A stretch of DNA of 35,459 nt from Candidatus Parcubacteria bacterium (GTDB lineage Bacteria; Patescibacteriota; Minisyncoccia; Phycocordibacterales; UBA918). The translations under genes were made by a program, and so were the position numbers. The stretch covers positions 1 to 35,459 of the forward strand of contig JBEDID010000003.1 in assembly GCA_041173745.1 (NCBI GenBank), in the 5' to 3' direction. Below the pieces are notes generated by a model. The model searched no databases and was not told the DNA's origin. It saw nothing but the letters and a program-made list of their open reading frames with translations. Shown piece after piece: positions 9,451 through 28,781 of this stretch. Numbering within the stretch: the stretch's first letter is position 1; every line of letters starts with the position of its first letter.

Positions 9451-11274
9451 CTACCAAGACCCGCCTCCCCCGCCGCCAGAACCACCACCAGACGAGCCGC
9501 CGCCAAATGAACCAGAACCACCTGAAGATTGGGGAGATACTGACATTCCGCTTGATATCGCTCCTGTAAACATTACCAGATGTTGACCAAATGAAATAGT
9601 ATCAAAAGTACCATAATTACTTGTATACCATTGGGGAGAATCTATAATCACATCTTTAAATATCTCTGCCCACTGAGACTCAACACCTAAAGCAATTGCA
9701 TAAGGTAAATATTCCATAAACTTTTCGGGATTCAAGGATGGTGCATTATGGAACTCAAAACGCTCCTTATCAGTCACTGACAAAAAAAGTTTAAAGCCCT
9801 TGAGATGATTTAGTGCTTCAAAACCCAATTTAGTTCTTCGTTCAGAGAAAATTGTTATCGTTATAACTACTGCAACAATGAAAATAATTACAAATATAAA
9901 AGCGTACGGTACATTAATTAAAAGAGCGTTCAAAAAAACCATTACCATTACCGCAATAAAAATAAAAGAAATAACCGTCTCAGACTTTATCACTTTGTCT
10001 AGAAATCCTTTTGTCACCATCTCATTTTTTACCTCATTTTTTAAATCTTTGATTAGGGAATAGTTACTGCGTAACAATTCTTTATTTGATTTAACTTTAG
10101 ACAACAAAACTGTCTTAGGCACAGTATTGAGCACGACGTCTTGATATTTTGAATTAAAAGCACGCATAAAATCAGAAGACAGGGATTCTTGCGTCGCACC
10201 GCCTGTATCGCGAAAAATGAGCCTTAGCAATTTTCGATAAGGCACAGAAGCACTTTCATTCTCTGATTTGAGTAGCGTTATTTCATAATCATCAACCTCA
10301 AACAACAACCAAGCCTTTCTGGTCACCTCCTTGATTGAAATAAAACCATTTTGCGCCAAAAATATTAGTCCGGCGGTAATATCTCTTGCGTGCAATTTAT
10401 TATCAAACAAAACACCGGAAAACAAAGGATTAATATTCTGATATGGCTCATATTGCGGGACAACAACCGTACTACTTCTATTTTTGGTTCGCCAGTTATA
10501 AGCAAGATAAATAAACACACACAATAAAGCTGTGATTAAAACAAACAAGACAACGATAGTTTTAATTCTCTCTAATTTTAATATTGGGCTCGATAGAAAA
10601 AGCTCTTGAGCAACTGTAAGATTATCTCCCGGAATCAAAACCCGCTGTTTGAAAAAGGTTCTTCCGTACGAAGTATAGGAGTCATCACATTTATCCACCA
10701 CTCCAAATACACCTGCATAACAATCAAAATGTTCACCCTGCATTTTTTTAACACCACCAGAGACAATTGTTACCACTTGTAAAATCGGAATTTCCCACTC
10801 ATTTCCGGTCACATTCCAATACAGCTCTGTTCCATTCTTATTTTCTGACAAAGCCCCGCGGGCGCGGTAGGTAATTTCGTAGACATGTTGGCCGGTGATT
10901 GTGTTGTTTGGGTTACCGATTTTTACTGATAAGCCTGGGTAACTTTCTAGAGCATAAGGTTCTGCAACGCCGTCACGAGTGACAGAAATAAGTTCATATT
11001 CAACATACCGTTCTTTATACCAAGCTGAATCCGGCTGTGCGTGTTTTTCTGAAATACTACGATAAATACCGTGTTTCTGTACTCCTTCAAAATCGTAGGT
11101 GATGGTTTCAGTAATATCTAAAGAGCTGTCGGATTGGATTGTAATATCACTAACGAATGAGGTGATTTGTTCGGCCGAAACTGTTCCTACCCACAAAAAC
11201 CAGATGGTCACAACAAAAAACAGCCACTTTGTAGAAGGGGTTAGTCTGTCTACAAAAGTGGCTGTATTCAACAT
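9451..11274 (-). CDS. DUF2207 family membrane protein
   Basis: AEQITSF, ELYWNVTGNEW, YLPYAIALGV and the Gly/Ser-rich GGGGGGSW terminus. Confidence 0.9.
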   Translation of the reverse strand: MLNTATFVDRLTPSTKWLFFVVTIWFLWVGTVSAEQITSFVSDITIQSDSSLDITETITYDFEGVQKHGIYRSISEKHAQPDSAWYKERYVEYELISVTRDGVAEPYALESYPGLSVKIGNPNNTITGQHVYEITYRARGALSENKNGTELYWNVTGNEWEIPILQVVTIVSGGVKKMQGEHFDCYAGVFGVVDKCDDSYTSYGRTFFKQRVLIPGDNLTVAQELFLSSPILKLERIKTIVVLFVLITALLCVFIYLAYNWRTKNRSSTVVVPQYEPYQNINPLFSGVLFDNKLHARDITAGLIFLAQNGFISIKEVTRKAWLLFEVDDYEITLLKSENESASVPYRKLLRLIFRDTGGATQESLSSDFMRAFNSKYQDVVLNTVPKTVLLSKVKSNKELLRSNYSLIKDLKNEVKNEMVTKGFLDKVIKSETVISFIFIAVMVMVFLNALLINVPYAFIFVIIFIVAVVITITIFSERRTKLGFEALNHLKGFKLFLSVTDKERFEFHNAPSLNPEKFMEYLPYAIALGVESQWAEIFKDVIIDSPQWYTSNYGTFDTISFGQHLVMFTGAISSGMSVSPQSSGGSGSFGGGSSGGGSGGGGGGSW

Positions 11275-14209: not shown

Positions 14210-14237
14210 ATTATACGACAGCCGAGTCTGAAGTCAA
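14210..14237 (-). promoter_or_regulatory. Putative sigma70 promoter of groESL
   Basis: TTGACT-N16-TATAAT on the minus strand. Confidence 0.6.
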
Positions 14238-14246
14238 AAAATACTA

Positions 14247-14274
14247 TTGACATAATCTGTTAAAGTTATAGAAT
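14247..14274 (+). promoter_or_regulatory. Putative divergent sigma70 promoter
   Basis: TTGACA-N16-TAGAAT upstream of the gene at 14367. Confidence 0.55.
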
Positions 14275-14366
14275 CCCAAACAGCCGACATTTTTATTTGT
14301 TTTAGCTAAACTTTTAACAAAAAACCTAAATGTTGTTCTTTCACATATTAAATAAGGAGCTTTCTA

Positions 14367-15269
14367 GTGAATAAAACAGAAGCAAGTAAAAACACATTTT
14401 ATCTTAGCGTCAAAGGTTTTAATGTACGTATAGAACAATGTTACCAAAAGGCAGCCTCGATGATGGCTAAATTCCTTAAAAAGGAAACTGCTATTGATGT
14501 TGAATTTTTAAGACATTTCTTTACTGTCTTAATGACAATGTTAATTTCCATCTATCTCTCAATTACGTATATGGGTTGGATTATTGATAATATCGATATT
14601 TCGATGCCGTTAGCAATAATGGCTTCTGTATACATTATTTTATTCATAGCCTGGAGAAAGCTTTATGTGCTAAGCAAGGAATATATTAACGACAACAACC
14701 GAGCATCATTAAACGTTCTTGAAAAATGGTTTGTACCGTTAAAAACCACCACCCTTACCCTGGTCTTTTTTACATCAATAACACTGATGATTTTAATTTA
14801 TAACTATTTGTTCGATTCAATAAGTCTATTGGAGCTAATTGGACTACCAATCTCAACTTTAGTACTCATGTTTATTGTCCATTTACTTATCAGGGATTTA
14901 GAACCAAATTTTGTTAAGATTGTTAGAATAGCGGACAAAGAATTCTGTTGCGAAAAAGCCCATATTTCGACCTTAGCAAGAAACTACTGGGTTCAATCGC
15001 TAGACGACCCAAGGGAAGTCATCGACAAACTATTAACCTTTATTGATTACTGGCTGTACAATCAATCGACAGCAGCCAGCAAGTTCCTGAGGAAGATTGG
15101 GCCGGAGGGTTATGAATTATTGGATGATTACGATAAATTCTTCGAAGGGTATTCTAATTATTCTATTCCGCAAGCCATGATAAAAAAACTTTGCACCTAT
15201 GCAATTAGAGGTATTTCAGTCAAACAAGCATTAAATCTGATAATTGAGAAGAAAAAATATAAATCATAA
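14367..15269 (+). CDS. Hypothetical membrane protein (about 4 TM), AT-rich
   Basis: 300-aa ORF with AAGGAG before the GTG start, four hydrophobic segments and a downstream terminator. Confidence 0.7.
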   Translation: MNKTEASKNTFYLSVKGFNVRIEQCYQKAASMMAKFLKKETAIDVEFLRHFFTVLMTMLISIYLSITYMGWIIDNIDISMPLAIMASVYIILFIAWRKLYVLSKEYINDNNRASLNVLEKWFVPLKTTTLTLVFFTSITLMILIYNYLFDSISLLELIGLPISTLVLMFIVHLLIRDLEPNFVKIVRIADKEFCCEKAHISTLARNYWVQSLDDPREVIDKLLTFIDYWLYNQSTAASKFLRKIGPEGYELLDDYDKFFEGYSNYSIPQAMIKKLCTYAIRGISVKQALNLIIEKKKYKS

Positions 15270-23104: not shown

Positions 23105-23440
23105 ATTAATTGATTATTGTACGTCGGCAACGGTGTTTTCTCTAATAACTTATTTTTGCTTTTAATTAAGAATATTTTTTTAGCACTCCAGACATTACTC
23201 AATTTTGTTTTAAAACATTTTATACATTTGTTTTAGTGTCAATTGAATAAATTATTCCTTCTCTGATAGAGTTACAAAAAGAAAAATCAAAGTTTAGCAT
23301 TATACTCTGAACTAATTTTCTATCAGAACAGACTTGTCTTTATCTGGCAACGCGCGAAAACGAGCAAAAACTGGCATATAATATAGCTGTATCTACAGTA
23401 TACGTGGTTTTATAAGGGGCGCAAACTAATTTAGCTCCTT

Positions 23441-23536
23441 TTAACCAGAAATATTAATTAATTCAAACCAAACATAGACCACTACACCGAGAGCAGTAAT
23501 TAGTAACAAGGAACTAATAATCAGAAAAGTTTTCAT
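23441..23536 (-). CDS. Candidate 31-aa single-TM small protein
   Basis: MKTFLIISSLLLITALGVVVYVWFELINISG; its ATG overlaps the upstream stop (ATGA). Confidence 0.45.
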   Translation of the reverse strand: MKTFLIISSLLLITALGVVVYVWFELINISG

Positions 23537-23646
23537 GCTGCTATATAAACGACGTCTGTTTGTAGAAAAGTAATGATGGTTAATGCGAGTATAACGAGAA
23601 ACAATAGTCCACAAAACAATATTAACCGTGGTCGAGACAACTCCAT
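23533..23646 (-). CDS. Candidate 37-aa single-TM small protein
   Basis: MELSRPRLILFCGLLFLVILALTIITFLQTDVVYIAA. Confidence 0.4.
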   Translation of the reverse strand: MELSRPRLILFCGLLFLVILALTIITFLQTDVVYIAA

Positions 23647-23790
23647 TTTGCCCGTATTCCAATCACGAACATATAAAAACGAAAAAGTGAATCTAAAAAA
23701 ACTCATATAAAATAGGACTGAAAACAACTACCGTATAAATGCTACAAAAAAAGTACAGCTCTTGTTTTTGTTTACTTATCATCATAATTA

Positions 23791-24987
23791 TTATAACGCT
23801 TTATCGAGCGTAACAGAAACAGTTTTTTCCTCGCCCGTTTGGATAATTTTTAAGACGATTACTTGCCCGACGGTTTTTTCTCGTAGAATTGTAGCTAAAT
23901 CTTTAGTTCTCAATTCTTCACCATCGATACTTAAAATAATGTCACTTTCTTTGATTCCCACTTTATCGGCTGGTGAGCCGGGCATAACAGCCAATTCTTC
24001 CGGAGTCTGCCCCTTCACAACCAAGGCTCCATAATCAACCGACAGTTTATTAAGTTCAGTCAATCGCGCATTAATCATTGCGTATCGCACCCCTAAAAAC
24101 GGTCTAACAATTTCACCATACTGTTTTACTGAATCAACCACTCCTTTAACAACATTGGCTGGCAAAGCAAAACCAATACTATCAGCGCCACGCGAGGTAG
24201 CGACATTAACTCCAATCACTTCCCCTTTAGTGTTTAGGAGTGGACCGCCAGAATTACCGGGATTAATAGCCGCATCAGTTTGAATCACTTGGTCTAATTG
24301 TTCACTATTACCACGTCCGTCGCTAGCCACAATTGAACGCGCTAAACCAGACACAACACCAACTGAAACTGAATTACGAAACTCGGCCAAAGCGTTTCCA
24401 ATAGCAATTACTGGTTGTCCGAGTTTAAGTTTTTCAGAATCACCAAAAGTGGCAAAAGTTAAAGCCCCTTTCAATGGTTCGCTGATTTTTAGAATAGCAA
24501 TGTCGAGCTGAGGATCGCGAGCCAATACATCGACTTTGTAGGCAGTACCATCATTAAGTAGAATTGAGTAGCGTGCTTCTTTGTCTTCAACTACATGGCG
24601 ATTTGTTACAATCAAACCATCATTACTCACAATAAAACCAGAACCGCCACCGACTTCGCGCTCTTCTGTTCCGTTCTCACGCACCCGAGGCACACTAAAA
24701 CCGCCAAAAAATCCCCACGGGTCAAACGTTTCATTATACTGTTCATACACTGGCACATCCTTTGTTATCACGACCGAAACTACCGCCGGATTCACAGCCG
24801 CAATAGAATCAACGATTTGGGTAGTTTGTTGTTCAACCAGTAGAGAGTTGGTTTCAGAACTAGCGGCTGGTTGAATTGCTAAATAAGTCACTAAGCTATT
24901 GCGTGCCACATATCCAATTCCAACCAAAACTACTAAAGTAATTAAACTACTAAGTAACGCTGTTTTTGCAACTGTCCCTGGTTTCAT
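23791..24987 (-). CDS. htrA: HtrA/DegP-like serine protease with one PDZ domain
   Basis: GSGFIV, TNRHVV, DIAILK, QTDAAINPGNSGGPL, and PDZ motifs PFLGV and GSPADK. Confidence 0.93.
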   Translation of the reverse strand: MKPGTVAKTALLSSLITLVVLVGIGYVARNSLVTYLAIQPAASSETNSLLVEQQTTQIVDSIAAVNPAVVSVVITKDVPVYEQYNETFDPWGFFGGFSVPRVRENGTEEREVGGGSGFIVSNDGLIVTNRHVVEDKEARYSILLNDGTAYKVDVLARDPQLDIAILKISEPLKGALTFATFGDSEKLKLGQPVIAIGNALAEFRNSVSVGVVSGLARSIVASDGRGNSEQLDQVIQTDAAINPGNSGGPLLNTKGEVIGVNVATSRGADSIGFALPANVVKGVVDSVKQYGEIVRPFLGVRYAMINARLTELNKLSVDYGALVVKGQTPEELAVMPGSPADKVGIKESDIILSIDGEELRTKDLATILREKTVGQVIVLKIIQTGEEKTVSVTLDKAL

Positions 24988-25004: not shown

Positions 25005-25114
25005 ATAATTACTCAGTCTCTTTCACAAACAACTCCTTCCCACGATTCCACATTTCGGGATAGCCTTGTAGCTGCAACCAATACCACCATTCAGCTCCCC
25101 AGAGATATTGGGTA
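25005..25114 (-). repeat. Orphan duplicate of the 3' end of the glycosidase gene (partner at 27749-27858)
   Basis: 110-bp direct repeat with 7 mismatches; encodes TQYLWGAEWWYWLQLQGYPEMWNRGKELFVKETE* without a start codon. Confidence 0.95.
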
Positions 25115-25191
25115 AGTTGATTTTACGATTAAGTTAAACCTACCCTGTAAATCAAATAAACCCTTTTTATATATTTATACACACATCTTTC

Positions 25192-27198
25192 CTACCAGTC
25201 TTCTTCTTGCAACAGTTTCATCCTTTGCAAAATAATCACCACTTCTTTTAAAATCCTAATAATTTCGGTTTGTTTGTATCTATTGTCACCATTAACCTGT
25301 TCAGAGTTAGTCTTCCCGCCTTCGGCAGATTGGAGAGAAGTGGCTATGGTTGGGTCGTTGTGTTTTATTTGGGCGGCTCGGCTGGTGCTAGTGGTAGTAT
25401 TTCGACTCGACAAAACAGTTAGACTTATCTCGTGGATAACAGGTGTAACAGTCGGATTGGTAGTAGTTAAAATAGCGCGCCACTGGAAAGAACGGGCTCG
25501 AGCATCTTCAGGAAAAGAACTGTTGTTGTCGATGTCGTGCCAGGTATTACCGTGATTAGTAGTATAAGAGAAAGCGACGGTGGTACCAGCAGGGGTAGTA
25601 ACATTAGCCGCGAAGGTAATGAGATCCTGGTCTTTAGTGAAGGCTTGTTCAGAGCTGGTATATGTACCAACACTCTCATAGCCGTTGGAGTAGGTGACGG
25701 AGTTGACGGTAGGAGTAGTGTTGGTGTCGGCGGTGGTGAGATTGAGCTGGTACTGCATCCAATCGTTTCCGATGAGGGCAGTAGGGTCTATAGGACATGA
25801 AGTGGGGTCGGTACAAGGAGTAGACCAACTGCTCCAGGCGGAGTCAGGGAGTTCGATTTGGATGTAGTCGATTTCGAGGGAGTCAGTGGAGTTGTTCCAG
25901 CTGCCAGGGTTCCACCAGATATCAAAACCAATCTTAGAAAAAGGAATGCTAGCGGTGGTAAAAGAGGTAGTAGTCCATTCGTTGGGGATGATATCAGGAC
26001 AACCATCGTCATCCCACCAATCTTCGTCAAAGACACATGCCCAGAGTTCAGTAGCATTAGTGTTCACTCTGAAACGGGCAGTAACTTCGGTACCGATGGG
26101 AAAATATCCGTCTGGTTTGCCAGTGTCAATCCAAGTAGAGTTGTCGTCTGCATTGGGATTAGTTAGCTTCATAGTACCACCACTTTCTTCTGCCGTCTGG
26201 AAGAAGCCTCCCCAGCCATAAAAGTCACCAGCGTATTCGGAGACACTGTTGTCATCGAAGTCATCTATCCAAGCAGCCTCGCTATCCCCTAGTCGATATG
26301 AGAGTGCGGTGGATTGTCCTGCGGTTTGAGTTGCGTCAAATGCGAACGTAGTGGTAGGAGCGGAAGTTATAGATTGTAGTCTGCTGGTGTATATTCCTTG
26401 TGGATTATATTGATTGTCGAGGTTGATGACGGTCAGGCCACCCCTTGTACTCACATACAAAAGGTTGTTGGCTAGGAAAGAGTGCAATACATAATTATTC
26501 CCCAACGCCGGTGTGGTGGCGGTGGTATATGTCTGCACCAAGGTATCGTCAGCCGGGTCGACGGTGCCTTGGGTGTTGATGACGGTCAGGCCACCCACTG
26601 TACTCACATACAAAAGGTTGTTGGCCAGGAAAGAGTGCAATACATAATTATTCCCCAACGCCGGTGTGGTGGCGGTGGTATATGTCTGCACCAAGGTATC
26701 GTCAGCCGGGTCGACGGTGCCTTGGGTGTTGATGACGGTCAGGCCACCACCCCATGTACTCACATACAAAAGGTTGTTGGCTAGGAAAGAGTGCAATACA
26801 TAATTATTCCCCAACGCCGGTGTGGTGGCGGTGGTATACCGATATTCTTGGCCAAGCGCCACTTCCCCGCCGTTCTTATCGACTATTCCTGTAATCGACA
26901 ACTCATCCAGAGGTTTCGTTCCACCTTTCTCAAATTCCTCCTTCGTCGACTCAGTATACGCTCCGGCTTTATTTGCCAGTGTCACATCACCCGGGAACTG
27001 TGTCGCGGAGGTACGGGAGTTAGTACCGGAAGCAAAGTTTGAAGCAGTATCCCAACTATAGGTCTGGGCGGCGTGACTGGTATTAGGGAGAGTAAGTTGG
27101 TAGCTGCTAACTCCAATAACAGCAGTCAAGAGAAGTCCGGCCAGGAATTGGTAGCGAAGTTTCTTAGTGACAGTCTTCGGAACATAAGAGAAATACAT
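25192..27198 (-). CDS. Large exported Thr-rich protein with three LVIVD-like beta-propeller-blade repeats
   Basis: N-terminal signal/TM (..SHA-A); repeats LYVST(W/V/R)GGLTVIN; probable start ATG 27198 (the track start 27243 overlaps the upstream gene). Confidence 0.75.
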   Translation of the reverse strand: MYFSYVPKTVTKKLRYQFLAGLLLTAVIGVSSYQLTLPNTSHAAQTYSWDTASNFASGTNSRTSATQFPGDVTLANKAGAYTESTKEEFEKGGTKPLDELSITGIVDKNGGEVALGQEYRYTTATTPALGNNYVLHSFLANNLLYVSTWGGGLTVINTQGTVDPADDTLVQTYTTATTPALGNNYVLHSFLANNLLYVSTVGGLTVINTQGTVDPADDTLVQTYTTATTPALGNNYVLHSFLANNLLYVSTRGGLTVINLDNQYNPQGIYTSRLQSITSAPTTTFAFDATQTAGQSTALSYRLGDSEAAWIDDFDDNSVSEYAGDFYGWGGFFQTAEESGGTMKLTNPNADDNSTWIDTGKPDGYFPIGTEVTARFRVNTNATELWACVFDEDWWDDDGCPDIIPNEWTTTSFTTASIPFSKIGFDIWWNPGSWNNSTDSLEIDYIQIELPDSAWSSWSTPCTDPTSCPIDPTALIGNDWMQYQLNLTTADTNTTPTVNSVTYSNGYESVGTYTSSEQAFTKDQDLITFAANVTTPAGTTVAFSYTTNHGNTWHDIDNNSSFPEDARARSFQWRAILTTTNPTVTPVIHEISLTVLSSRNTTTSTSRAAQIKHNDPTIATSLQSAEGGKTNSEQVNGDNRYKQTEIIRILKEVVIILQRMKLLQEEDW
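26422..26838. repeat. About 2.7 near-identical 153-bp coding repeats
   Basis: Units start at 26422, 26575 and 26728; identical except for one variable codon site and one synonymous change. Confidence 0.95.
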
Positions 27199-27215
27199 AT
27201 TGTTTTTTAATAATA

Positions 27216-27689
27216 CTAATAACCACGTCGGGAACGCATACATTCTCCAGGGTTTTGGTAGCCGTTTTCTTCATAAACAAAGTGACAGTCTTTGGAATTA
27301 AGGAGAGGCAGAGCTGGGTCTTCAGGGAGGGTAAAGGTTTCTAGGTTTAACGTTGGTTCGGAGGTGGTCGATTCGGTAGTGATGGTTTCTATAATTGGTG
27401 CGGTGGTTGTTGCTGTGGAAGTAGCAGTTTCTATAATTGGTGCGGTGGTTGTTGCTGTGGAAGTAGCAGTTTCTATAATTGGTACGGTGGTAGTAGAAGT
27501 TTCTATGATTGGTGCGGTGGTAGTAGCAAACAATTCTGCTGCAGCCACACCGGCTGAAGCATCAGAGATAATAGGTTTAGTATCAACCAAAATAGTGTTG
27601 GTGTTTACTGAAATAACACTAGCTACCACACCGAGGACTACGCCTAGTATAATAAATTTATAATACCGCTCAACTGAAAGTTTTGTCAT
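27216..27689 (-). CDS. Membrane-anchored Thr-rich (mucin-like) protein
   Basis: N-terminal TM, ATSTATTTAPIIET repeats and a C-terminal Cys pair; TGC-TAATAT 7 nt before the ATG. Confidence 0.75.
   Translation of the reverse strand: MTKLSVERYYKFIILGVVLGVVASVISVNTNTILVDTKPIISDASAGVAAAELFATTTAPIIETSTTTVPIIETATSTATTTAPIIETATSTATTTAPIIETITTESTTSEPTLNLETFTLPEDPALPLLNSKDCHFVYEENGYQNPGECMRSRRGY
27385..27528. repeat. 42-bp and 30-bp coding tandem repeats
   Basis: GTTTCTATAATTGGTGCGGTGGTTGTTGCTGTGGAAGTAGCA at 27385 and 27427, with shorter variants at 27469 and 27499. Confidence 0.9.
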
Positions 27690-27752
27690 ATTTCTTATAT
27701 TAGCATGAGGATAAAGCTGAAAGATGAAAGATGAAAAAAGGGGGGGGGATAA

Positions 27753-28781
27753 TTACTCAGTCTCTTTCACAAACAACTCCTTCCCACGATTCCACATTTC
27801 GGGATAGCCTTGTAATTGCAACCAATACCACCACTCGGCGCCCCAGAGGTATTGAGTAGAAAACCGTGTCTCGGCGGCGTATTTTAAAATGTCGTTGAAT
27901 TTTTCTACGTTCATGCGCGTGAACTGAATATCGAGCGGTACATCGGTGACAGGTTCAAGTAGCCAAGGCTCGGCAGAAAGTTCAATTAAGACTGATGGTT
28001 TGCGGCCATGAATTGTGGCCATGAAATTATCTTTTACCCGATAAGCTAAGGGTGGTAAAACAGTACGGAATTGTCCAAGCTCAGGATTCCAAAAATGTAC
28101 GTAGACACTAGTACCGAATACATCGCCGTGCGAGTAAGCTCCGTTCCAAGTTCCAAGATTACCACTGTCGGTTACTAAAATTTGGCGAGTAGCGTCGAGT
28201 GAACGAGTTTGAGCAATTTCTTTTTCTAGAAAATTGACGTCGAGAGCGCCACAATTTTCAAAAGCAAAGGCAGACAAGAATGGTTCATTTTCAATTTGCC
28301 ACATTACTACCGCTGAACTATTTTTGTAGCGATTAATAACTTGTTCCATGTAACGCAGCTGGGCCGCTTGTTGATCGGCCACGTTAAATGCGCGAGCCCA
28401 TTCTGGAATATGGCATTCTGGCCAACGAGGCAAACGACGTCCGACCGCCAGCACCACTGTTGCATTCACTTCTTCAGCCCGCTTGACCTGGTAATCGAGC
28501 TCTTCAAAGTTATAAACTCCCGACACTGGTTCAATCATCGGCCAATGGGCAGCCAAACGAAGGTTACGTACTTCCAGGTCATCAATAATAGCGTCGTAGG
28601 TTGCTCTCCAATCGAGCCCGAGTTCGCGTGCATAAGGAGTATTAAAAGACATTCCGTAAGTAATATGCTCCGGTACGGGTTTTTGTGCCAATACCCACAA
28701 AGTAAATAAAGCCAGCACAATAAGTCCGATTATTGAATATAAAATCGTGTGCTTAATACTGATTGTTTTATGTTTTATCAT
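27753..28781 (-). CDS. Membrane-anchored clan GH-A glycoside hydrolase (GH42/GH5-like)
   Basis: W..IEP..G.YNF..LD, WQIENEPF (acid/base) and IELSAEPW (putative nucleophile). Confidence 0.75.
   Translation of the reverse strand: MIKHKTISIKHTILYSIIGLIVLALFTLWVLAQKPVPEHITYGMSFNTPYARELGLDWRATYDAIIDDLEVRNLRLAAHWPMIEPVSGVYNFEELDYQVKRAEEVNATVVLAVGRRLPRWPECHIPEWARAFNVADQQAAQLRYMEQVINRYKNSSAVVMWQIENEPFLSAFAFENCGALDVNFLEKEIAQTRSLDATRQILVTDSGNLGTWNGAYSHGDVFGTSVYVHFWNPELGQFRTVLPPLAYRVKDNFMATIHGRKPSVLIELSAEPWLLEPVTDVPLDIQFTRMNVEKFNDILKYAAETRFSTQYLWGAEWWYWLQLQGYPEMWNRGKELFVKETE

Follow-up and report, generated by a model that had tools for sequence, protein, structure and literature searches.

A predicted surface-protein module without a recombinase gene, bracketed by silently diverged copies of a gene tail, in a freshwater Patescibacteria genome

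The window analyzed here is a 35,459-nt contig (JBEDID010000003.1, positions 1 to 35,459) from G000, the metagenome-assembled genome (MAG) of a tiny freshwater bacterium of the candidate phyla radiation (CPR; Patescibacteria). The MAG consists of 78 contigs totaling 906 kb, with 93% completeness and 1.6% contamination. On this contig, a two-gene module separates an intact glycosidase-like gene, hereafter called the anchor gene, from htrA, and a second copy of the 3′ end of the anchor gene is found between the module and htrA. All the genes of the locus are on the minus strand. In the direction of the genes, the order is a GH1 glycosidase gene, a gene for an EamA-like permease, the anchor gene, a run of nine C residues, open reading frames (ORFs) of 157 and 683 aa, a 77-nt spacer, the orphan gene tail, and htrA. 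Both copies of the tail are read in the frame of the 342-aa ORF. The features of the locus are the following.

27753..28781, minus strand: anchor gene, intact, encoding a 342-aa membrane-anchored glycoside-hydrolase-like protein with a clan GH-A TIM barrel.
27749..27858, minus strand: repeat copy B, comprising the final 106 nt of the anchor gene including the stop codon, plus 4 nt beyond the stop.
27815..27858, minus strand: diverged 44-nt part of copy B, encoding the genus-invariant TQYLWGAEWWYWLQL motif and carrying all 7 silent differences from 25071-25114.
27749..27814, minus strand: identical 66-nt block, encoding the C-terminal tail GYPEMWNRGKELFVKETE with its stop codon, through TTAT; its partner is 25005-25070.
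27740..27748, minus strand: C9 run (G9 on the plus strand), exactly at the repeat/cargo junction and 51 nt upstream of cargo gene 1.
27216..27689, minus strand: cargo gene 1, encoding 157 aa that comprise a transmembrane helix at the N-terminus, Thr-rich repeats (TTAPIIET), and a short C-terminal part bearing Cys.
25192..27243, minus strand: cargo gene 2, 683 aa, predicted to be secreted or anchored, with three 51-aa repeats.
26422..26883, minus strand: the three tandem repeats of cargo gene 2, 153-156 nt each (51 aa).
25115..25191, minus strand: 77-nt spacer from the stop of cargo gene 2 to the abrupt start of the orphan, a putative illegitimate or closure junction.
25005..25114, minus strand: repeat copy A, the orphan gene tail; htrA starts 17 nt later.
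23791..24987, minus strand: htrA, encoding a trypsin-like protease with a PDZ domain (Pfam), the native downstream neighbor of the anchor gene in related species.

Pairwise alignment, a repeat finder, and a whole-genome search returned the same direct repeat, 25005-25114 and 27749-27858, with 110 nt, 7 mismatches, 94% identity, and an offset of 2744. The 906-kb assembly contains these two copies and no others (BLAST E-value of the pair, 6e-42). A sequence-only reading of this DNA, made before the present analysis, had described 66 identical bp and seven silent differences in the other 44, and this description proved exact. The 66 nt up to the stop are identical, identity runs past the stop for 4 nt (TTAT), and all seven mismatches are found within the 44 nt farthest from the stop, an arrangement with a probability of 1.2e-3 if they were spread over the 110 nt. 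The differences are ACT/ACC, TAC/TAT, GGC/GGA, GCC/GCT, GAG/GAA, CAA/CAG, and TTA/CTA, all of them silent. As the silent share of random single-base changes in these codons is 16.7%, the probability of seven silent changes out of seven is 3.6e-6.

Copy B belongs to the full 342-aa ORF, confirming that the anchor gene was left intact, as had been claimed. Copy A, in contrast, is a true orphan that cannot be translated as the continuation of anything upstream, because two in-frame stops are present within six codons upstream of the start of homology and the sequence farther upstream is unrelated. For comparison, we used a panel of 128 genomes of the genus (G000 and 127 others), with the anchor locus compared in 11 related species. 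In those 11 species, the segment corresponding to the identical 66 nt encodes a species-variable protein tail, the least conserved part of the gene. The two 66-nt segments share a recent origin, and the two 44-nt segments do not, because the invariant motif has diverged while the variable tail is identical. At the four comparable silent sites, the nearest species, G067, shares three with the orphan and one with the gene, which is not decisive as to which copy is foreign.

Other roles of the repeat were considered. The 66-nt block as an attachment (att) site or a promoter conserved at the nucleotide level was rejected, since the tail varies in length and sequence in the 11 species. No sigma-70-like site was found on the minus strand of 25005-25114, where a promoter for htrA might have been carried, although CPR promoters may deviate from that consensus. 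A variable repeat/template repeat (VR/TR) pair of a diversity-generating retroelement was also rejected; from the orphan to the gene copy, the changes are C>T, T>C, A>C, T>C, A>G, G>A, and C>T and are thus not confined to adenines of the non-coding copy.

The anchor protein matched the Pfam families Glyco_hydro_42 (2.3e-10) and Glyco_hydro_2_C (1.6e-5; GH2 TIM barrel). Neither cargo gene matched a Pfam family, and no Pfam recombinase or transposase domain was detected in the cargo. A search of a large protein database for relatives of cargo gene 2 yielded 66 homologues at E<=1e-10, with a best identity of 52%, and five of the 66 are annotated with PF08309 (LVIVD). The product of cargo gene 2 belongs to a CPR-wide family of surface proteins of approximately 850-900 aa. 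The cargo as a whole is predicted from its sequence to be a membrane or secreted two-gene module, in keeping with the sequence-only reading, which had proposed two added surface-protein genes and no recombinase in the cargo. The C9 run may be prone to slippage and thereby control the surface module, or else it may be a feature of the junction. The repeat region of cargo gene 2 is polymorphic, as one contig of sequencing run X3 has a 3-nt insertion at 26590.

The order of the GH1, EamA, and anchor genes is kept in the 11 related loci. The anchor gene is followed directly by htrA in six of them and by another neighbor in five, and this empty-site comparison is one between species. Because gene order is kept in all 11 loci, with the anchor gene and htrA adjacent in six, the module at 25115-27748 is a real insertion; relatives with an empty site exist, as the earlier reading required. 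That reading had also suggested comparing strains for different cargo with the same duplicated end; between species, no tail repeat was found at the anchor site in the 11 related loci. A search of the 128 genomes with a degenerate pattern showed a single occurrence of the motif QY[LI]WGAEWWYWL in each of 101 other genomes of the genus; two occurrences were seen in G000 only. In the five loci with another neighbor, htrA is absent, and 0.7-1.4 kb separate the anchor gene from the conserved gene that comes next after htrA in our contig. On the other side of htrA in our contig, the interval 23105-23790, of approximately 690 nt and a G+C content of approximately 0.31, separates htrA from the next conserved gene and contains no ORF of at least 110 aa.

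Cargo DNA was found beside the anchor gene in none of the 127 other species; elsewhere in their genomes, weak matches were detected in two, G099 and G006. Homologues of the 683-aa protein (37-47% identity) are present in 3 of the 127 other genomes, at other loci. In G099, a homologue of cargo gene 1 (35% identity over 82 aa) adjoins the homologue of cargo gene 2. In G006, a homologous module is found between map and ndk, where a 37-nt sequence, the map terminator hairpin, is repeated perfectly on either side of it (contig C1 of that genome, 1180-1216 and 4804-4840; locus L147). The cargo is foreign and patchily distributed, judging from these matches. A degenerate pattern for WWYWLQLQGYPEMW gave no match in metagenome contigs, and no relatives of the cargo protein were found in metagenome or viral contigs, both of which are weak as evidence.

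Genome self-comparison and alignments revealed five more islands of the same design in G000, each with the full gene upstream and an orphan tail downstream and with homology ending 0-5 nt past the stop. A scan for orphan gene ends with silent differences, which had been suggested from the sequence of the main locus, was thus productive within this genome. The five islands are the following, each given by its contig and the positions of the copies.

C21, 7920-8143 and 11614-11834 (locus L057): rplL, with a tail of approximately 220 nt; the native terminator stays with the orphan.
C43, 2377-2436 and 5114-5173 (L058): a membrane ORF, 60 nt; the cargo contains an M20 peptidase and ATP-grasp pieces.
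C52, 2358-2568, 3199-3233, and 4642-4853 (L059): mgtC, with a 210-nt orphan and an internal 35-nt remnant.
C17, 8833-8879 and 11401-11447 (L061): a gene with a 47-nt tail.
C51, 2671-2725 and 6569-6623 (L062): a gene with a 55-nt tail.

The cargo of the C21 island contains an M23 peptidase and three secreted or membrane ORFs. The C52 island consists of two nested cassettes in series, with a membrane protein and an O-methyltransferase as cargo and dnaG as the next gene. No recombinase domain was detected in nine cargo ORFs from C21, C43, and C52, nor in the anchor of C43. Empty sites were found in relatives for four of the five islands: the gap at rplL is approximately 300 nt in G070, G062, and G013, G067 has mgtC next to dnaG and a gap of 44 nt at the C17 site, and the C51 site of G069 has a gap of approximately 21 nt. 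The longest identical runs are 66 nt at the main locus, 80 nt at C52, 46 nt at C43, 44 nt at C21, 18 nt at C17, and 12 nt at C51. At rplL, the gene copy and the orphan are 87% identical, and either of them is at most 85% identical to the 25 sampled loci of other species. The partner lineage at rplL would thus be a close but distinct relative, because the two copies are nearer each other than to the sampled loci.

When the six loci were pooled, the tails differed by 53 silent changes, including one TAA/TAG stop-codon difference, vs 13 replacement changes and one in-frame codon indel (P = 6.5e-21 against an expectation of 25% silent). Since the differences are silent only at the main locus and mostly silent over the six loci, both tails descend from functional, diverged alleles, which bears out the corresponding claim of the sequence-only reading. 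The simplest origin for a direct repeat would be local duplication of the tail followed by decay in place, but neutral decay is refuted by the ratio of silent to replacement changes, both at the main locus and over the six loci, and the DNA between the copies, the cargo, is unrelated. We give this origin practically no credence.

Related repeats were also seen in G000 and in its relatives. Duplicates of 5′ gene ends together with their upstream region, the mirror image of the islands above, are present in C39 (518-673 and 1873-2021) and C42 (5609-5689 and 7597-7677), where they flank 1.3-2 kb, as a symmetric recombination process predicts. Two candidate sister islands were rejected: the C1 pair 4394/4896, which is a VR/TR pair with adenine-specific changes, and the C25 repeat, which is a terminator palindrome. 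Among species, the distance from rplL to the conserved gene that follows varies between 87 nt and approximately 10 kb (loci L065-L089), marking an insertion hotspot. In contig C1 of G070, near-identical GC-rich terminator hairpins of 29-45 nt (93-100% identity) are found 1-6 kb apart with one or more predicted ORFs between them, for example, at 398188/399272, 422668/425266, 685583/687700, and 314140/320561/322243. Two VR/TR pairs are also present in G070, at 525009/525492 and 585168/586015. Contig C9 of G000 carries two tRNA-Ser-like genes 4.5 kb apart (9717-9934 and 14212-14434), one of them with the odd anticodon ACT; a similar stretch of approximately 130 nt follows each, and several genes are bracketed between them.

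We then considered the soundness of the assembly. The ends of MAG contigs overlap by exactly 127 nt in six pairs, and thus the final k of the assembly was 127, longer than the 66-nt block. The comparison covered Logan contigs (k=31) of four sequencing runs; such contigs can miss or drop rare forms. Of the four junctions, three, namely, htrA/repeat, orphan/cargo (25114/25115), and cargo/repeat, are covered without mismatch by contigs of run X1, which end 30 nt into each repeat copy, as expected of a k=31 graph. The fourth junction falls in a hole of run X1 at 27779-27990, with a depth of 1.6 vs 24-40 on either side, and the hole itself proves nothing. Contigs built with k=31 cannot separate the integrated form from an empty site plus a circle, so the integrated form is represented by the MAG contig only. 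Depth is uninformative in run X1, with 38-39.5 for cargo contigs, 28-31 for the flanks, and 23.5 for one cargo contig. Run X1 contigs also break at 27991 and at approximately 28300, which may reflect strain variation in the 3′ part of the anchor gene or a filter artefact.

The structure might have been mistaken if the haplotypes of two strains had been joined into a chimera in the MAG. The fragmentation of the MAG into 78 contigs, its 1.6% contamination, the coverage hole, and the contig breaks at both repeat copies would be in line with such a join. Nevertheless, three junctions are spanned by independent, mismatch-free X1 contigs, no k-mer is shared at the 5′ junction of the orphan that could have caused a false join, k exceeds the length of the identical block, and five other loci show the same design. 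We regard an artefact as very improbable.

The absence of recombinase genes extends beyond the cargo. Elsewhere, the 35-kb contig carries ordinary chromosomal genes (typA, groES/groEL, RNase J, pyrD, an htpX-like gene, and others) and no mobile-element genes, and no match to PF00589 or PF00239, the tyrosine and serine recombinase families, was found in the 906-kb assembly. Tyrosine recombinase matches are present in 22 of 26 sampled genomes, with 1-3 each, in open frames of Xer-like size. RecA is present in G000. As to DNA uptake, all 15 genomes of the genus sampled for ComEC have it, and DprA gave a weak match only. Natural competence has been described in Saccharibacteria (PMC10187176, PMC10633639).

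These data bear on a further explanation, in which the island is a degraded or satellite integrative element, a relative of cis-mobilizable elements (CIMEs) or a phage remnant, moved by a tyrosine or serine integrase acting in trans, with the 66-nt block as the att core. Integration at the 3′ end of a gene with a replacement tail supplied by the element is classical, as for e14 at icd and integrative and conjugative elements at rplL, and tyrosine recombinase matches are present in 22 of the 26 sampled genomes. However, no integrase is encoded in the cargo, the contig, or the assembly. Six target genes would need several specificities, for which the 1-3 Xer-sized tyrosine recombinases of the relatives are too few. 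Moreover, an element-supplied tail downstream of the core would give the opposite of the observed pattern, in which identity is stop-proximal and divergence is internal to the gene; at C17 and C51 there is no identical core longer than 18 nt, and no terminal inverted repeats or phage genes were found. An integrase-driven origin is thus most unlikely.

We lean, with some caution, toward the view that the 2.6-kb surface module was inserted without a recombinase, by host homologous recombination acting on imported DNA, in a one-sided, homology-facilitated illegitimate recombination. The uptake of DNA, the type of join, and the order of events are what we infer from the arrangement described above. 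The module at 25115-27748 would have been added by the recombination machinery of the cell working on imported DNA, with no site-specific recombinase. The conserved glycosidase gene would have served as the homologous anchor for the incoming DNA, whose far end would have been joined illegitimately 106 nt before the resident stop codon. The outcome would be the full gene, then the cargo, then the resident tail stranded before htrA, an 'insertion with long target duplication.'

The mosaic of the two tails calls for a second step, since at the main locus neither a one-sided join nor a crossover with a circle explains it alone. In the most economical history, the two tails would have been identical when the island formed, and a diverged functional allele from an island-free strain would later have overwritten the full-length gene. 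As homology extends no farther than the stop codon, that exchange would have been forced to resolve within the final ~66 nt, leaving the terminal block unconverted; the 44/66-nt boundary would then be the recombination breakpoint. Because a converted tract must be flanked by homology at either end, gene conversion probably could not easily have homogenized a block that reaches the last homologous base. A later overwriting would also suit the 80-nt block at C52 and the 46-nt run at C43. One-sided homology followed by an illegitimate join fits all six loci, and the short identical runs at C17 and C51 fit an anchor located outside the repeat.

The sequence-only reading had proposed instead that a circular cassette carrying another strain's glycosidase tail entered by one RecA crossover in the tail (Campbell type) and could excise again through the repeats to circulate between strains. 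Of this proposal, the insertion stands, and the circle and the single crossover are conjectural. The direct repeats do have the predicted topology, and the 66-nt block is long enough for RecA, as are the runs of 80, 46, and 44 nt at C52, C43, and C21. The break of the X1 contigs exactly at the repeat would equally fit a cycle of repeat, orphan-type tail, cargo, and repeat, and a circle with an already mosaic allele would give the same picture. In addition, runs X5 and X6, from another study, yielded mismatch-free pieces (five and three, respectively) that are all inside the cargo, with none on the 3.9 kb of flanks. This gives a hint, no more, that the same cargo may sit in another genetic background with flanks more than 10% different, and it would agree with a cassette that moves.

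However, as to excision, neither the joint of the anchor gene with htrA nor a closed circle was found in the contigs of the four runs, within the limits of such contigs for rare forms. The 66-nt identity would need a circle matching the resident there while its 44 nt differ by 16%, and because conservation of the gene is lowest in the 66-nt block, a single crossover with a diverged donor is insufficient by itself. The identical runs at C17 (18 nt) and C51 (12 nt) are shorter than RecA exchange usually requires. Finally, DNA enters by transformation as linear single strands, so that a circle would have to re-form inside the cell. Taken together, we consider entry as a circle unlikely, although it deserves to be kept in mind.

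A broader version of the exchange can be imagined, in which gene tails are portable homology handles in CPR bacteria: cassettes with the last ~50-200 nt of conserved genes would cycle between diverged lineages, exiting via the tails, being taken up by competence, and re-entering by single crossover. If so, this would be a general, recombinase-free cassette exchange diversifying the cell surface of ultrasmall bacteria, and the identical 66-nt block would be a worn-in crossover zone. We hold this to be a speculative idea and quite doubtful.

Several observations weigh against the one-sided insertion that we favor. Scans of metagenome and viral contigs found no donor, no same-species strain with the empty site, and no allele series. 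Without a donor, the order of events and the identity of the foreign copy are left to inference; a microhomology between donor and recipient would be expected at the illegitimate joint. On the glycosidase side, linkage across the 66-nt block is provided by the MAG assembly only, owing to the hole in run X1. The absence of recombinases from the genome is weak evidence, because the assembly, 93% complete, lacks ComEC and any Xer-type recombinase, although 22 of 26 sampled genomes have a tyrosine recombinase. Nor is the habit shared evenly by the genus: at the rplL site, orphans are absent from 19 of 20 loci of other species, with a 27-nt copy in G018, and the complete genome G070 (952 kb) has at most one comparable orphan. 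Lastly, homology-facilitated illegitimate recombination does not account for joins falling in the last 35-220 nt of the anchor genes, other than through detection bias and selection on the neighboring genes.

CPR genomes are tiny, and few recombinase genes were present in those that we searched, yet their gene content varies, especially for surface proteins. Six loci in 0.9 Mb suggest that much of this turnover needs only DNA uptake, RecA, and a conserved neighboring gene. Each event leaves a datable scar, in that the silent divergence of the orphan gives the distance of the partner allele, and the scars mark sites of possible clean loss of the cargo. If the pattern holds across CPR bacteria, it would offer a simple, searchable marker of recent gene gain and, for the few cultivable, naturally competent members, a natural design for insertion by one-sided homology.

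The island can be compared with several known systems. In islands borne by an integrase at the 3′ ends of protein or tRNA genes, and in the CIMEs derived from them, a duplicated tail keeps the gene intact. Unlike in those, no integrase and no fixed core were found for the island described here, its identity is on the wrong side of the repeat, and its cargo is only 2.6 kb. Like a Campbell integration, it has direct repeats of a homologous segment flanking the insert and would be reversible in principle through these repeats. Unlike a Campbell integration, no circle was seen, the tail is a mosaic, and C17 and C51 have no identical run that is long enough.

We read the insertion as belonging to a known class, that of homology-facilitated illegitimate recombination or 'insertion with long target duplication.' The latter term denotes integrase-free gene units flanked by repeats of 30-420 bp, with a single copy in the empty-site genome (PMC2853133). 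In that account, which cites earlier work on H. pylori, the units carry restriction-modification genes in Helicobacter, Haemophilus, Neisseria, and others, some of the repeats overlap the 3′ end of a neighboring gene, most of the species are competent, and the mechanism is given as unresolved (PMC2853133). Similar to those units, ours is small and without a mobility gene, has direct repeats of 110 nt (i.e., >30 bp), and has an empty site in relatives. It differs in its cargo of surface proteins rather than restriction-modification genes, so that breakage by a restriction enzyme cannot be invoked, and in its host, a CPR bacterium with six scars in 0.9 Mb. It differs also in that the copies are diverged functional alleles and not the near-identical target copies of that description. 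With 66+4 nt identical and 7 silent differences in 44 nt, they can be taken for copies of one target only by assuming a later allelic exchange.

Homology-facilitated illegitimate recombination has been proposed for the displaced orphan 3′ ends at rhs, cdiA, and type VI secretion system effector-immunity loci in a study that cites the original experiments in Acinetobacter, Streptococcus, and Pseudomonas (PMC5361080). The likeness to those loci comprises a conserved upstream anchor, an illegitimate join at the far end, and a former gene end shifted downstream as an orphan. At our locus, the anchor is conserved across the genus, homologues of the cargo are present in only 3 of the 127 other genomes, and the orphan has in-frame stops upstream. 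The C52 island, with its remnants of 35 and 210 nt in series, resembles the displacement arrays left there by repeated events. The displaced segments of those loci are a variable toxin end with an immunity gene, possibly kept by selection; here, in contrast, the anchors are ordinary genes (glycosidase, rplL, and mgtC), and the displaced tail and the new one encode an identical protein sequence. Among the titles and abstracts listed for Patescibacteria islands and for integrase-free duplication of 3′ ends, none described this design for CPR bacteria. Compared with these known systems, what is notable is the recurrence of the design in one tiny genome together with its clean silent-site signature.

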